Assembly (NCBI GenBank): GCA_017447165.1
Contig: JAFSOD010000004.1
Location: 653,903-717,902, forward strand
Direction of reading: 5' to 3'
Length of the DNA stretch: 64,000 nt
From: Bacilli bacterium
GTDB lineage: Bacteria > Bacillota_I > Bacilli_A > RFN20 > CAG-826
Positions 17,778-54,120 of this stretch are shown one piece after another. The translations under genes and the position numbers were made by a program. Under the pieces are notes generated by a model. The model made no database searches. It saw nothing but the letters and a program-made list of their open reading frames with translations, and was not told where the DNA came from. Each line of letters starts with the position of its first letter. The first letter of the stretch is position 1.

Positions 17778-18121
17778 CCTTCGACCTAGATGATTGCTGA
17801 CTACTAGTTAGTTAGAGGAAAGTCCATGCTCGCACAATCTGTGATGGTTGTAGTGATTACGCTAACGGAAAAAATAACGTTAGGCATGTAGGAGTGCATG
17901 ACGGCGGAAATTAACCTAAAGGGCAACCCATGGTAAAATTCCTGAAAGTGCCACAGTGACGGAGCTTATTTGAAAGAATAAGGTGGAACGCGGTAAACCC
18001 CATAAGCGAGAAACCCAAATTTGGTAGGGGAGACTTGATAGAGAAACGAATCGATTCAAGTAAGATTATTCTTAGATAAATTATCATCCTAGACAAAACA
18101 TGGCTTACAGGGTCGAAGACT
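17778..18121 (+). ncRNA. rnpB: RNase P RNA, Bacillus-type (type B)
   Basis: Contains GAGGAAAGTCCATGCTCGCAC, AGTGCCACAGTGACGGAG, GGTGGAACGCGGTAAACCCCATAAGCGAGAAACCCAAATTTGGTAGGGGA and ACATGGCTTACAG, matching conserved type B rnpB blocks. P1 pairs CTTCGACC (17779-86) with GGTCGAAG (18111-18). Confidence 0.8.
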
Positions 18122-37550: not shown

Positions 37551-37625
37551 TGGCTGGGGTACTTGGGATCGAACCAAGGAATGTCGGAGTCAGAGGCCGA
37601 TGCCTTACCGCTTGGCTATACCCCA
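37551..37625 (-). tRNA. tRNA-Gln (anticodon CUG)
   Basis: Reverse complement TGGGGTATAGCCAAGCGGTAAGGCATCGGCCTCTGACTCCGACATTCCTTGGTTCGATCCCAAGTACCCCAGCCA aligns with bacterial tRNA-Gln. Anticodon loop CUCUGAC. Encoded CCA. Positions 31-39 form a C·U mismatch. Confidence 0.8.
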
Positions 37626-43277: not shown

Positions 43278-43367
43278 TGGTGCCCGGGACCGGAATCGAA
43301 CCGGTACGGTTTATACAACCGCAAGATTTTAAGTCTTGTGCGTCTACCTGTTCCGCCACCTGGGCGC
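43278..43367 (-). tRNA. tRNA-Leu (anticodon UAA), long variable arm
   Basis: Reverse complement GCGCCCAGGTGGCGGAACAGGTAGACGCACAAGACTTAAAATCTTG...GGTTCGATTCCGGTCCCGGGCACCA. Anticodon loop CUUAAAA. CCA encoded. Confidence 0.85.
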
Positions 43368-43374
43368 TTAGAAT

Positions 43375-43450
43375 TGGTGACTCGCCGGAGATTCGAACTC
43401 CGGACCCCTTGATTAAAAGTCAAGTGCTCTACCGGCTGAGCTAGCGAGTC
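43375..43450 (-). tRNA. tRNA-Lys (anticodon UUU)
   Basis: Reverse complement GACTCGCTAGCTCAGCCGGTAGAGCACTTGACTTTTAATCAAGGGGTCCGGAGTTCGAATCTCCGGCGAGTCACCA. Confidence 0.9.
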
Positions 43451-43455
43451 AACAT

Positions 43456-43531
43456 TGGCTGGGGTGGGTGGGATCGAACCACCGAGATGACAGAGTCAAA
43501 GTCTGTTGCCTTACCTCTTGGCTACACCCCA
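43456..43531 (-). tRNA. tRNA-Gln (anticodon UUG)
   Basis: Reverse complement TGGGGTGTAGCCAAGAGGTAAGGCAACAGACTTTGACTCTGTCATCTCGGTGGTTCGATCCCACCCACCCCAGCCA. Confidence 0.9.
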
Positions 43532-43536
43532 ACTTG

Positions 43537-43620
43537 TGGTGGAGGGGGGCAGATTCGAACCGCCGAACCCGAAGGAGCTGATTTACAGTCAGCCGCGTTT
43601 AGCCTCTTCGCTACCCCTCC
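43537..43620 (-). tRNA. tRNA-Tyr (anticodon GUA)
   Basis: Reverse complement GGAGGGGTAGCGAAGAGGCTAAACGCGGCTGACTGTAAATCAGCTCCTTCGGGTTCGGCGGTTCGAATCTGCCCCCCTCCACCA. Long variable arm. Confidence 0.9.
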
Positions 43621-43644
43621 GTGTATGGTATAGCTTCGCGTTAA

Positions 43645-43720
43645 TGGTGGATGCTGAGGGGCTCGAACCCCCGACCTCCGCCGTGTAAAGGCGATGCTCT
43701 CCCAGCTGAGCTAAGCATCC
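43645..43720 (-). tRNA. tRNA-Val (anticodon UAC)
   Basis: Reverse complement GGATGCTTAGCTCAGCTGGGAGAGCATCGCCTTTACACGGCGGAGGTCGGGGGTTCGAGCCCCTCAGCATCCACCA. Confidence 0.9.
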
Positions 43721-49969: not shown

Positions 49970-51181
49970 CTAATTGAGGCTAGATAATATTGCTTCAACA
50001 AGTTCTTTAGTTTCTATTTTTATAATCCCAAATGTCTTATTTCCAGCATAATTTAAAGATGAACCAATTGAGTAACACTCTTTATCATCAAGTATGATAA
50101 AACGATCATGGAAATCATTATTATTGATTACTGTGATTTTTCCATATTGGACGATAAATTTATTAATTTCTTTAATTGATAAAGTCGAAAAGCGAGATTT
50201 ATAAATTATTCTGTCAACTATAGGAGATACTTTTTTCAAAAAAATTAAGCTTTGATAATCAAAATATGGATCGATAATTATTATTTTATTATTCGCTTTA
50301 GAAACAATTGAAGATATTAATTCATAAGCATCGAACACTTCTCCTTTGAAAACGATTTTCTCTTTTATATAAGAATTATCTTTTACGATGTTTTCAATTT
50401 TATTTTTTAAACTATAAATTTCATTTTCAAGTCTGAGGAAATTATCTGCAGTAACCAGCGCTCGACTTTCATTGATCGAATATCCTTTGATCATATATTC
50501 TTTCAATACATTGGATACCCATTTTCTAAATTCTATTGCCCGTTTTCCTTTGATACGATATCCAATTGCCAAAATCATATCTAGGTTATATTGTTGTACT
50601 AAATATTGCTTTCCATCTAGGGCAGTATGTAAGAAATCCTTACTAACTGAATCAGGCATTAATTCCCCTTCACTAAAGATATTATTGATATGCATTGTAA
50701 TGTTTGGCCTACTAGATTCAAATAGAGAAGCAATTTGATTTTGTGTTAACCAAACAGTGTCCTCTTTTGGATCCACACTTACATCTAAATTGATAGAACC
50801 ATTATTATAAATAATGATATTATTGTTATCTTTGATGTTTAGCGATTCTAAAACAAAAGATTCGAACTTTTTTGTAATGTCTTTATTAATTCTTAATCCT
50901 ATTGTTTTGATAACATCTAAACTATATACAGTTAATGGTTTTTTCTTCGGTAAATTAATAACCATAGATGCAATAGGTGCATTTTTTGCATTTATTGCAC
51001 TTTTGGTAGTGGCGTCAACATTGTAGGTTGACTTGATGGCCCTTCTAATTGTTGTTGCCGCAACATTGAAGAGAGCGGCTATCTCATTGGCAGATAGCCA
51101 GATAGTATTGTCTTCGACAGACACTCTTACATCAAGAGAAAGATCTCCATCTGTAAATTTGATTGTTTCAAAATTAGTCAT
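49970..51181 (-). CDS. RhuM-family protein with tandem N-terminal repeat domains and a C-terminal PLD-like (HKD-variant) domain
   Basis: 403 aa from ATG 51181, with SD GGAGGT 5 nt upstream. Two copies of the RhuM/Fic-N-like module (DNTIWLSANEIAALF and EDTVWLTQNQIASLF), then the RhuM core ILAIGYRIKGKRAIEFRKWVSNVLKEYMIKGYSIN. The C-terminal ~150 aa carries KIIIIDPYFD...FHDRFIILDDKECYSIGSSLN. This resembles the PLD HKD motif HxK(x)4D(x)6GSxN with K replaced by R and one extra residue before GS. Confidence 0.7.
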   Translation of the reverse strand: MTNFETIKFTDGDLSLDVRVSVEDNTIWLSANEIAALFNVAATTIRRAIKSTYNVDATTKSAINAKNAPIASMVINLPKKKPLTVYSLDVIKTIGLRINKDITKKFESFVLESLNIKDNNNIIIYNNGSINLDVSVDPKEDTVWLTQNQIASLFESSRPNITMHINNIFSEGELMPDSVSKDFLHTALDGKQYLVQQYNLDMILAIGYRIKGKRAIEFRKWVSNVLKEYMIKGYSINESRALVTADNFLRLENEIYSLKNKIENIVKDNSYIKEKIVFKGEVFDAYELISSIVSKANNKIIIIDPYFDYQSLIFLKKVSPIVDRIIYKSRFSTLSIKEINKFIVQYGKITVINNNDFHDRFIILDDKECYSIGSSLNYAGNKTFGIIKIETKELVEAILSSLN

Positions 51182-51380
51182 ATAGACCTCCTGTTTCTGG
51201 GGAAAATGAAAATAGAGACGATTTACTCTCAATCCTCCATCCTCATTTATTCCCTTCGAACCCAAAGGTCTCTATATCTTTTCCTCGATTATATTATAGC
51301 ATTTAATGCTATAAATGTATATCAGTATTTAATAAAAGTGCAAAAAAATACAGTACACAATTGTGTACTGTAATATACAA

Positions 51381-51465
51381 TGGTGCGCGGGATGAGAATC
51401 GAACTCACACATCTTGCGATATACGCCCCTCAAACGTACGCGTCTACCAGTTCCGCCACCTGCGC
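51381..51465 (-). tRNA. tRNA-Leu (anticodon GAG), long variable arm
   Basis: Reverse complement GCGCAGGTGGCGGAACTGGTAGACGCGTACGTTTGAGGGGCGTATATCGCAAGATGTGTGAGTTCGATTCTCATCCCGCGCACCA. Anticodon loop UUGAGGG. CCA encoded. Confidence 0.8.
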
Positions 51466-51571: not shown

Positions 51572-52144
51572 ATGAAAGAAATATTAGTGGAAACCAGTGC
51601 TCGTCATATTCACGTCACTGAAGAACAATTTAAAATTTTATTTGGTGCAGATGCTAAATTAGAAGTAAGAGCGCCTTTATCTCAACCAGGTCAATTTGTT
51701 TCTTTTTCTAGATTAGATATCGTTGGTCCTAAAAAGACTATTCCAAATGTCTCGATTCTTGGACCATTTAGAAAAGCTGGACAAGTGGAAGTGTCTGCGA
51801 CTGACGCTAGAACCTTAGGTGTTCCTGCAGTCGTTAGAGAATCTGGTGATTTAGCGGGATCCCCTGCCATTAAACTAGTGGGTCCTGCTGGAGAAGTGGA
51901 ATTAGCGGAAGGTTGTATCGTTGCGAAAAGACATATTCATATGACTCCAAAAGACGCTGAAGAATTTGGTGTTAGTAATGGTGAAGTCGTCAAAGTTGAA
52001 GTTAATAACCCAGGTAGAAGTTTAATCTTTGGTGATGTTGTGGTTAGAGTTAGAGATGACTTTGCTTTAGCAATGCATATCGACACAGATGAAAGTAACG
52101 CGGCTGGTTGCGCTGGTACCGTATACGGGAGAATTGTTAAATAA
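51572..52144 (+). CDS. pduL: PduL-family phosphate acyltransferase (phosphotransacetylase/propanoyltransferase type)
   Basis: 190 aa. Two PduL/EutD-type repeats (ETSARHIHVT.. and ..AKRHIHMT..) with conserved His and acidic residues. Confidence 0.65.
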   Translation: MKEILVETSARHIHVTEEQFKILFGADAKLEVRAPLSQPGQFVSFSRLDIVGPKKTIPNVSILGPFRKAGQVEVSATDARTLGVPAVVRESGDLAGSPAIKLVGPAGEVELAEGCIVAKRHIHMTPKDAEEFGVSNGEVVKVEVNNPGRSLIFGDVVVRVRDDFALAMHIDTDESNAAGCAGTVYGRIVK

Positions 52145-52392
52145 TGGAGACCATCCATTACTATCCTAGGGGAACTTGTTCGGTCGAGATGTTCATCGAT
52201 CATGAAGATGGCATCATTAGACAAGTGAAAATCATTCGTGGATGTCCAGGAAACACTAAAGGCTTAGCAGCTTTATTAGTGGGTATGCCACTAGAAGAAG
52301 CTTATAAGCGTCTTAATGGTATTCAATGTCGTAATGGAACATCTTGTCCAGATCAACTCGCAAGAGCGATAAAAGAATACTTGAATAAATAA
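52144..52392 (+). CDS. TSCPD-domain protein (4 Cys)
   Basis: 82 aa, contains the literal NGTSCPDQLA motif plus C12, C34, C52, C58. ATG overlaps the pduL TAA by 1 nt (TAATG), suggesting translational coupling. Confidence 0.65.
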   Translation: METIHYYPRGTCSVEMFIDHEDGIIRQVKIIRGCPGNTKGLAALLVGMPLEEAYKRLNGIQCRNGTSCPDQLARAIKEYLNK

Positions 52393-52490: not shown

Positions 52491-52739
52491 ATGTTAGCAG
52501 TTAATTATTCAACCTTGAGAAATTCATTGAAATCTTATTGTGATCACGCCACTGACAGTGAGGAAGTAGTGGTTGTAACAAGAAAAGATGAAAAGAATGT
52601 TGTTTTGATGTCTTTGAATCAATATAACGAGATGCTTAAACAGATAAACAACTCTCAGTATCTTAAACTTCTTCAAAAAGCAATTGAGCAAATTAAGAAT
52701 GGAGATGTTGTTATCAAACACCTAAATGATCTTGATTAA
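52491..52739 (+). CDS. Phd/YefM-family antitoxin-like protein (no cognate toxin gene adjacent)
   Basis: 82 aa. N-terminal VNYSTLRNSLKSYCDHA...VVVTRKDEKNVVLMSLNQYN matches the YefM/Phd fold. SD GGAGGT upstream. The 210 bp downstream encodes no toxin-sized ORF in any frame. Confidence 0.6.
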   Translation: MLAVNYSTLRNSLKSYCDHATDSEEVVVVTRKDEKNVVLMSLNQYNEMLKQINNSQYLKLLQKAIEQIKNGDVVIKHLNDLD

Positions 52740-52786
52740 ACAAAAACGTCTTGAATAAATAATATTATTTAATTATCATATTAATG

Positions 52787-52935
52787 CTTATCCAGAATCG
52801 TGATACCAAGGATGAAAAAACACGATAGCAACTCTCGGAAGAGTAAGTGCTCTCCTTAGCAAAGTCCCAGAACTTTGATCGATAAGTAGAGAAGAAAATA
52901 ACTTCTCCCAATTTCTGGGGGAAGTTTTATTTTTT
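52787..52935 (+). promoter_or_regulatory. structured metK leader with terminator/antiterminator (riboswitch-like, class not identified)
   Basis: Outer helix CTTATC (52787-92) / GATAAG (52881-86) encloses ~90 nt with internal hairpins (ATCGTG..CACGAT; GGAAGAG..CTCTCC). 3' intrinsic terminator CTTCTCCC-aatttct-GGGGGAAG + TTTTATTTTTT at 52901-52935, ending 15 nt before the metK ATG. TCCCAGA at ~52848 can alternatively pair with TCTGGGGGA. No SAM-I GGAGGGA/GGCAACC blocks found. Confidence 0.45.
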
Positions 52936-52950
52936 AAGAGGTATATCATC

Positions 52951-54120
52951 ATGAGTAAAGAAAAAATCTTATTTACATCAGAATCAGTTTCTGAAGGCCA
53001 TCCTGATAAAGTGTGTGACCAGATTAGTGATGCGGTTTTAGATGCGTGTTTAAAAGTGGACCCAAACGCCCACGTCGCCTGTGAGACTTTTGCGACCACA
53101 GATTTTATTCTTGTGGGTGGAGAAATTACTTGTAAAGAAAAAGTAGATATCCCTCAAATAGTTAAAGATGTATTAAAGAAGATTGGCTATGATAAACCAG
53201 AATATGGATGTGACTATCATACGATTGAAATTGTCGATAAAACCAAACAACAATCTCCTGATATTAATCAGGGAGTAAATCAAAAGAAGCCAGAAGATTT
53301 AGGAGCGGGAGACCAAGGCTTAATGTTTGGCTACGCCACTAATGAGACTAGTGGCTATATGCCGCTTGCAATTTCTATTGCCCATAAACTTGTTAGGGAA
53401 GCCTCAGAAAAACGCCACAAAGGGCTATTTAAAGGGGCTAGACCTGATATGAAAAGCCAAGTTACTATCGATTACACTGATCCTAAACATATTCGTATCG
53501 ATAATATGCTGATGTCTGTCCAACACGACGAAGATGTGAATTTAGAAGAATTTAAAGAATATATTCATAAAGACATCATGCAGAAAGTTGCCAAATCCTT
53601 TGGATTAAATATTGATTTCAAATACTTAATTAATCCAACTGGTAGATTTGTTTTAGGCGGGCCTGCTGGGGATACTGGTTTAACTGGTAGAAAGATTATT
53701 GTTGATACTTATGGTGGATCCGCAAATCACGGTGGAGGAGCCTTCTCAGGAAAAGATCCTTCTAAAGTCGATAGAAGTGGAGCCTATATGGCCAGATATA
53801 TCGCTAAAAACTTAGTAGCCGCAGGTGTTGCGGATAGACTTGAAGTTCAACTCTCTTATGCGATTGGAGTTAACTATCCTTTAAGTGTCGGAGTGAAGAC
53901 ATTTAAAACTAGTAAATACTCTGATGAGAAGATCTTAGAAGTCATCCATACTTTATTTGATTGTAGACCAGGCATGATTATTAAAAACTTCTCACTTAAA
54001 AAGCCATCCTTTAAATATCAGGATATCTCTAATTATGGACATTTTGGTCGCCCAGATGTCGATTTACCTTGGGAAAAACTTGATAAAGTAGAAGAGATTA
54101 AAAAGCTTTTAAAGAAATAA
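52951..54120 (+). CDS. metK: S-adenosylmethionine synthetase
   Basis: 389 aa. Canonical MAT motifs (FTSESVSEGHPDK, GAGDQG, DTYGG). Confidence 0.95.
   Translation: MSKEKILFTSESVSEGHPDKVCDQISDAVLDACLKVDPNAHVACETFATTDFILVGGEITCKEKVDIPQIVKDVLKKIGYDKPEYGCDYHTIEIVDKTKQQSPDINQGVNQKKPEDLGAGDQGLMFGYATNETSGYMPLAISIAHKLVREASEKRHKGLFKGARPDMKSQVTIDYTDPKHIRIDNMLMSVQHDEDVNLEEFKEYIHKDIMQKVAKSFGLNIDFKYLINPTGRFVLGGPAGDTGLTGRKIIVDTYGGSANHGGGAFSGKDPSKVDRSGAYMARYIAKNLVAAGVADRLEVQLSYAIGVNYPLSVGVKTFKTSKYSDEKILEVIHTLFDCRPGMIIKNFSLKKPSFKYQDISNYGHFGRPDVDLPWEKLDKVEEIKKLLKK

Follow-up and report, generated by a model that had tools for sequence, protein, structure and literature searches.

The metK locus

The window, which is the whole 64-kb stretch of DNA that was analysed (G+C 34%), carries metK on its forward strand. 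The preceding gene ends at 52739, leaving an intergenic leader of 211 nt 5' of metK, and these boundaries agree with the leader of about 210 bp described in an earlier note on this DNA. The elements that frame the leader are:

52751-52756 and 52774-52779, forward strand: promoter-like site, TTGAAT and TATCAT separated by a 17-nt spacer (match to a sigma-70-like consensus only)
52900-52935, forward strand: intrinsic terminator, a stem-loop at 52900-52926 followed by TTATTTTTT at 52927-52935
52936-52941, forward strand: Shine-Dalgarno-like AAGAGG, read from the sequence, 9 nt 5' of the ATG
52951-54120, forward strand: metK, an ORF encoding S-adenosylmethionine synthetase (389 aa; Pfam PF00438, PF02772 and PF02773)

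From the promoter-like site, the expected transcript start is about 52786, where the first helix (P1) of the structure described below has its 5' edge; seven promoter consensus sites were seen in the region against 7.9 expected. The terminator, which the earlier note had recognized, has a stem of 11 pairs (five of them G-C) and a loop of five, and its T-tract runs to a point 15 nt 5' of the start codon. As AAGAGG lies outside the terminator, it is not sequestered. The minimum free energy of the 181-nt leader is -41.6 kcal/mol (z = -2.55 against dinucleotide shuffles, one of 200 of which was equally good). In the predicted fold a CUUAUC/GAUAAG helix surrounds three hairpins and the terminator stands 3' of these. 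Pairing of CTTATC (52787-52792) with GATAAG (52881-52886) had been noticed before and holds, the hairpins enclosed by it being three (P2, P3 and P4) rather than two.

Upstream of the leader, all on the forward strand, are genes encoding a PduL-type phosphotransacylase (PF06130, 51572-52144), a TSCPD-domain protein (52144-52392) and a Phd/YefM-type antitoxin (PF02604, 52491-52739). The PduL-type gene and the TSCPD start codon share one base, and the two genes therefore appear to be translationally coupled. The antitoxin gene, flanked by the TSCPD gene and the metK leader, is alone, with no toxin ORF evident beside it. The window also contains a bacterial RNase P RNA of class B (17782-18112, forward strand; 271 bits) and, on the reverse strand, a cluster of five tRNA genes (43281-43720) and two single ones (37554-37625 and 51384-51465). 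The RNase P class, taken with the G+C content of 34%, is in keeping with a Bacilli/Mollicutes-like host. Beside a tRNA gene is an ORF of 431 aa (49970-51265, reverse strand) whose N-terminal part holds two similar repeats (…DGDLSLDVRVS…TIWLSANEIA… and …NGSINLDVSVD…TVWLTQNQIA…).

Homology of the leader to SAM-I

When 116 nt (52780-52895) were scanned, SAM-I (RF00162) matched 52785-52888 over model positions 1-108 with 41.2 bits (E = 1.2e-8). The Rfam gathering score of this family is 44.4 bits, so that the window copy falls 3.2 bits below it. At gathering thresholds the whole 64-kb window gave RNase P and tRNAs only and no SAM family, and a 301-nt Rfam scan at E ≤ 10 gave no SAM-family match; the weak matches in the latter (GibS, His leader and snoRNAs; E = 1.5 to 7) were set aside as noise driven by the terminator. 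The lack of an RF00162 match in these two scans is an artefact of the speed filters of cmscan and not a matter of score, since the filters relax at 116 nt and the match then surfaces. The parts of the aptamer are:

52785-52888, forward strand: SAM-I-type aptamer, a four-way junction of P1 to P4 with a pseudoknot (RF00162, our own model R1 and covariation)
52785-52792, forward strand: P1 5' strand, TGCTTATC, pairing with GATAAGTA at 52881-52888
52793-52796, forward strand: J1/2, CAGA, corresponding to the canonical aAGA in the RF00162 alignment
52797-52826, forward strand: P2, ATCGTG/CACGAT, an undivided hairpin of 6 bp with an 18-nt loop (covariation)
52808-52812, forward strand: pseudoknot 5' strand, AAGGA in the P2 loop, pairing with TCCTT at 52853-52857
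52827-52851, forward strand: P3, AGCAACTCTC ... GAGTAAGTGCT, with the GCAAC/GUGC ligand-pocket blocks (RF00162 alignment)
52853-52857, forward strand: pseudoknot 3' strand, TCCTT in J3/4 (covariation)
52860-52877, forward strand: P4, CAAAGT/ACTTTG, with the loop CCCAGA (covariation)

The same layout can be read by eye as P1, J1/2 CAGA, the P2 hairpin, P3 AGCAAC...AAGUGCU, J3/4 CUCCUU, P4 and GAUAAG. It had been claimed earlier that the leader has no SAM-I signature and that it is unclassified. Neither view can be kept: the leader contains GCAAC (52828-52832), GUGC (52847-52850), the AGA of J1/2 (52794-52796) and the AUC/GAU pairs of P1, RF00162 matches at full length and the Rfam scan places the leader, once aligned, in a known class. 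The familiar GGCAACC/GGUGCC has become AGCAACU/AGUGCU through two compensatory pair changes (G-C to A-U and C-G to U-A); in the RF00162 alignment P3 retains both its bulged A and its 2-nt 3' bulge. The only SAM-I block truly absent from the window is the GGAGGGA...GGCCC...UGA arm, comprising the K-turn and P2b, and its absence accounts for the drop of the score below the gathering threshold. With SAM-I the element shares the order of P1 to P4 in a four-way junction (RF00162, clan CL00012), J1/2 AGA, the GCAAC/GUGC pocket of P3 with its bulged A and the AUC/GAU pairs of P1; also common to both are a pseudoknot between the P2 loop and J3/4, a terminator-type platform and a site before metK in a Firmicutes-like genome. 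It is very probable (about 0.88) that the metK leader is a SAM-I (S-box) riboswitch acting as an OFF switch through transcription termination.

Relatives came from two sources. A metK-based scan of species-representative genomes gave orthologue loci (L001 onward), none of them from an identical genome. The MetK proteins closest to that of the window are at L001 and L002 (76% identity; uncultured Bacilli from faeces) and at L003 to L006 (63%), and 20 metagenome-assembled contigs encode a MetK identical to that of the window. The variant leader is also found in the metK loci L001 to L003. A metagenome scan with the pattern TAGCAACTC..GTAAGTGCT..GAWCGAT, strict in P3 and J4/1, gave at least 120 contigs; the matches listed together with the earlier loci made an alignment of 107 distinct aptamers. 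Owing to the strict pattern, the invariance of the P3 core and J4/1 and part of the exclusive link to metK arise by construction.

Covariation analysis across leaders, which had been suggested as a check, revealed a conserved structure in these 107 distinct copies among the matches listed. Paired cells made up 91.0% of the 107-row alignment, compared with 35 to 39% when partners were slid by one to three columns, and the covariation score was 0.506 against 0.170, reached by none of 500 shuffles (controls that ignore phylogeny). Among the 107 copies, changes on both sides were seen in five of eight pairs of P1 (the other three never vary), in five of six pairs of P2, in five of six pairs of P4 and in all five pairs of the pseudoknot. 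Two distal pairs of P3 covary, the proximal ones being fixed by the search pattern. Invariant in 107 of 107 relatives among the matches listed are the AUC/GAU pairs of P1 beside the ligand pocket, as are G52795 and A52796 of J1/2; the AUC of P1 and these two bases of J1/2 lay outside the search pattern.

The pseudoknot is also evident independently of the alignment. When each P2 loop was compared with the J3/4 of the same copy, the longest antiparallel run averaged 5.74, compared with 4.09 ± 0.09 for permuted partners (among the matches listed). There were 63 distinct sequences of the pseudoknot strand among these matches, each with its own matching J3/4 (for example, AAGGA/TCCTT, AGAGAA/TTCTCT, GGGGGA/TCCCCC, CGCAGCG/CGTTGCG and TACTAGC/GCTAGTA). 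The P3 loop varies freely and no conserved partner for it (PK-2) was seen in the 107 copies among the matches listed.

R1, a covariance model built only from the variant, gave 96.8 bits at its single match in the 64-kb window, about 60 bits for the leaders of L004 to L006 and 25 to 45 bits for several further metK leaders from Firmicutes (R1 score only for these last). L004 to L006 are of Thomasclavelia or Stoquefichus type (the record of L005 is labelled Bacteroidaceae) and L014 is an Acholeplasma; the metK leaders of all four pass the RF00162 gathering score (50.8 to 62.1 bits). With such neighbours above the threshold, the window is at the low-scoring end of a SAM-I continuum among metK leaders. 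Variant leaders themselves score low. In E-value mode, SAM-I matches were obtained in only two of 17 short variant-leader loci among the matches listed (L127, 42.7 bits; L144, 35.5 bits), and the gathering score was reached in none of the 20 variant-leader loci scanned among these matches (best 42.7).

The link to metK is strong. Directly downstream of the leader was metK in 112 of 124 loci among the matches listed; the remainder are contigs that end early, ORF-calling artefacts and one chance match. The chance match is L110, which was rejected because it has no P1 and no metK downstream, and the apparent non-metK downstream ORFs of L118, L149 and L157 were discounted as they resemble, by eye, out-of-frame calls over metK. 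Every complete variant locus among the matches listed has metK downstream and not polyamine genes. The variant is a widespread, metK-tied SAM-I subgroup that lacks the K-turn, and not a new class.

Several other features of these loci were recorded. The TSCPD gene is also present at L002 (2566-2808), L003 (1066-1308), L024 (2751-2984) and L054 (2771-2998) and in 76 variant-leader metagenome loci among the matches listed (tblastn, presence in the locus only). Two Anaeroplasmataceae loci have it immediately next to metK, without an intervening leader. The linkage of TSCPD to metK appears to be conserved. Since the leader of L002 directly follows the TSCPD gene, the antitoxin gene of the window looks like an insertion, to judge from gene order. 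A purine riboswitch (66 bits), unrelated to the present element, lies immediately 3' of metK at L040 (2264-2365; Dolosicoccus MAG). L032 and L039, both horse-faeces MAGs, share a short leader about 60 nt 5' of metK (…GCCGGGTCGGAATTAAAAACCTTACCGGCA…AAGGAGA). It had no Rfam match at the gathering score and might be a different small SAM-type element.

The P2 arm and the identity of the ligand

In SAM-I the K-turn, with its 3-nt bulge and tandem G·A/A·G pairs between P2a and P2b, has been described as conserved (PMC2258182). In the window, P2 is not split into P2a and P2b; it has neither the P2b helix nor the strand that supplies the G·A partner of a K-turn. The variant P2 is a hairpin of 5 to 6 bp in the 107 copies among the matches listed, and its loop consists in these copies of a 5' linker (3 to 5 nt), the pseudoknot strand (5 to 7 nt) and a 3' linker that is mostly 8 nt long. 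This last linker has the sequence UGAAAAAA in the AT-rich members and UAAYCAG in the GC-rich ones. UGAA, the motif of the bulged strand, occurs on the 3' side in 39 of the 107 copies among the matches listed, all of them AT-rich, and no conserved GA that could serve as its tandem G·A partner was found in the variable 5' linker of the 107 copies. A K-turn in which the pseudoknot helix acts as the C helix was considered and rejected, as it would place five extra A between the GA and P2a and would have no conserved partner GA. Presumably it is the 3' linker, long and flexible, that brings the loop to J3/4 in place of the K-turn and P2b.

Loss of this arm invites the view that the element is a decayed, non-functional relic of SAM-I, standing before a terminator that is constitutive or otherwise controlled. 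The score is below threshold, the K-turn arm is gone and in an engineered SAM-I aptamer a single K-turn mutation (A1nC) abolished binding of SAM (PMC3651934). However, the window copy has lost none of the four helices and keeps the pseudoknot, and compensatory changes run through the 107 listed copies in both AT-rich and GC-rich hosts; a relic would not covary. Decay is thus highly improbable.

Two other members of the clan resemble the element, and membership of RF00634 or RF01725 was judged by structure, as cmscan reports only the score of the best clan member. SAM-I/IV (RF01725), in which P2 is undivided and PK-1 is absent (PMC6890682), shares the pocket core and the undivided P2, whereas the window has a covarying PK-1. 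In SAM-IV (RF00634) PK-1 is present and a short turn takes the place of a true K-turn (PMC6890682). This class shares the pocket core and PK-1 but is without a P4 in the junction and adds P5 and PK-2 after P1; in the window P4 lies in the junction and covaries. In the window element an undivided P2 occurs together with PK-1 and an in-junction P4. A C at J4/1 was dropped as a difference from SAM-I since it is also C in L004 to L006 and in published alignments of SAM-I and of the spermidine riboswitch. It is possible, if somewhat doubtful, that the subgroup should be regarded as a distinct and undescribed member of the SAM clan, defined by a SAM-I core, an in-junction P4, PK-1 formed from an undivided P2, no K-turn and the 'double clamp' antiterminator described below. 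If so, it would merit a model of its own and would offer folding studies a natural SAM-I without a K-turn.

A change of ligand has a precedent in this family. Thirteen SAM-I variants sense spermidine, one of which precedes a metK gene (Salvail et al. 2023, PMC10853860). In these, J1/2 is UAUAG and P3 is GG-AAA-CC...UGGCC, while the K-turn arm (AGACGAGGGG...GUCGAAGA) is kept (alignment in PMC10853860). The spermidine riboswitch is, like the window element, a close relative of SAM-I, uses a terminator-based OFF switch and is found once before metK, but its pattern of change is reversed in the window element, which has kept the pocket and lost the arm. A spermidine-sensing variant was rejected for the window element, as the J1/2 and P3 changes are absent and there is no context of polyamine genes. 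More broadly, an aptamer derived from SAM-I might have turned to SAH, methionine, decarboxylated SAM or a polyamine, and it is true that P2 of the window departs from the consensus and that the first base of J1/2 is C and not A. Such a switch is very unlikely: where the spermidine class alters the pocket, the window retains AGA, GCAAC, GUGC and the AUC/GAU pairs of P1, its differences are confined to the peripheral P2 arm, and it is metK, not polyamine genes, that complete loci have downstream. Because the pocket blocks AGA, GCAAC and GUGC are kept and the relatives are tied to metK, SAM is most likely the ligand, as far as sequence can indicate.

The earlier note had offered a divergent SAM aptamer, a different aptamer class or a protein-mediated attenuator. 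The first of these accords with the RF00162 match, and nothing was found in support of the second or third. A new class unrelated to SAM-I, for SAM or some other ligand, could appeal to the empty Rfam scans of the whole window and of 301 nt, but these negatives are filter artefacts and the match on 116 nt runs from end to end. Helices, junction order, pseudoknot and core blocks all coincide with those of SAM-I, and R1 finds leaders that pass the Rfam SAM-I threshold, making this reading extremely improbable. Control by a T-box, a leader peptide or an RNA-binding protein is barely credible, as it has the presence of a terminator in its favour and nothing further, no T-box or leader family scored even weakly (the 15-bit His-leader match, E = 3.6, is noise) and a SAM-I aptamer fully accounts for the conserved structure.

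The expression platform and what the variant means

For a SAM-I riboswitch, the question is then how the aptamer might act on the terminator. Two segments 5' of it are complementary to its halves:

52865-52872, forward strand: P4-loop element, TCCCAGAA, complement of TTCTGGGG at 52913-52920 (proposed outer antiterminator helix)
52889-52894, forward strand: purine block after P1, GAGAAG, complement of CTTCTC at 52902-52907 (proposed inner antiterminator helix)

The P4 loop is unusually conserved as CCCAN among the matches listed, a feature that was not seen in the threshold-passing SAM-I leaders of L004 to L006. Its conservation in the variant is attributed to pairing with the terminator. In nearly every listed member, 5 to 8 nt of the P4 loop are exactly complementary to a segment that ends 2 to 7 nt before the T-tract and comprises the terminator loop and the top of the 3' strand. 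The mean exact complement was 6.18 nt, compared with 5.10 ± 0.09 for permuted partners (among the matches listed). Whichever base follows CCA (C, G or T), its complement (G, C or A) precedes TGG, and the dinucleotide classes were CA/TG (30), CT/AG (12), GA/TC (11), CC/GG (9) and TA/TA (8), again among the matches listed. The duplex of TCCCAGAA with TTCTGGGG has an energy of -12.0 kcal/mol. The idea that TCCCAGA pairs with the 3' half of the terminator as an antiterminator, put forward in the earlier note, thus gains from both the complementarity in the window and the covariation in listed relatives.

The second complementarity covaries as well. The purine block after P1 is GAGAAG, AAAGG or GAAGG and its partner in the terminator 5' strand is CTTCTC, CCTTT or CCTTC; the match averaged 4.59, compared with 4.11 ± 0.08 when permuted (among the matches listed). 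In the window the GAGAAG/CTTCTC duplex has an energy of -7.9 kcal/mol, and this hairpin is the predicted fold of a transcript truncated at 52911. Of 107 leaders among the matches listed, 106 have a T-run in the region 3' of P1.

When SAM is plentiful, it would bind the pocket formed by P1, J1/2 and P3, locking P1 and the stack of P1 on P4. With the aptamer locked, the terminator (52900-52926) and its U-tract would form and transcription would end 15 nt short of the start codon. At low SAM, P1 and P4 would be unlocked and the two upstream segments could pair with the terminator halves and block the terminator, the P4 loop (TCCCAGAA) capturing its loop and 3' strand and GAGAAG its 5' strand. Stacking of P1 on P4, locked by SAM, would keep the two antiterminator segments from meeting, one at each end of a rigid helix, and the 5-nt bridge on the terminator side would then be too short to span both helices. 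Without SAM, the 16-nt stretch made up of the P4 3' strand, J4/1 and the P1 3' strand would be flexible, allowing both clamps to close. The OFF logic, in which ligand binding blocks the antiterminator, is what we infer from this arrangement.

Energies bear on the model in two ways. For the isolated platform (52865-52926), the two-helix antiterminator (-15.2 kcal/mol) and the terminator (-16.4 kcal/mol) are nearly isoenergetic. With the aptamer included and no ligand, nearest-neighbour energies are -38.4 kcal/mol for the terminator state and -30.3 kcal/mol for the antiterminator state. As the terminator state is favoured even without ligand, the ON state must be kinetic or need an unlocked aptamer. 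No overlap of the antiterminator with the P1 3' strand was found in the window, and this is the weakest point of the switching model. At L082, participation of the P1 3' strand in the antiterminator is plausible by eye (GAUGA/UCAUU).

Through its covarying pairing with the terminator, the P4 loop is an example of a peripheral aptamer loop drawn into the expression platform. As the K-turn is held to help the SAM-I pseudoknot to form, the variant provides a natural test case without it. The main value of the finding lies in this K-turn-free SAM-I and in a blind spot of annotation; it leaves the understanding of SAM sensing as it was. In uncultured Bacilli-like and other gut-type lineages, annotations will list metK without a riboswitch.
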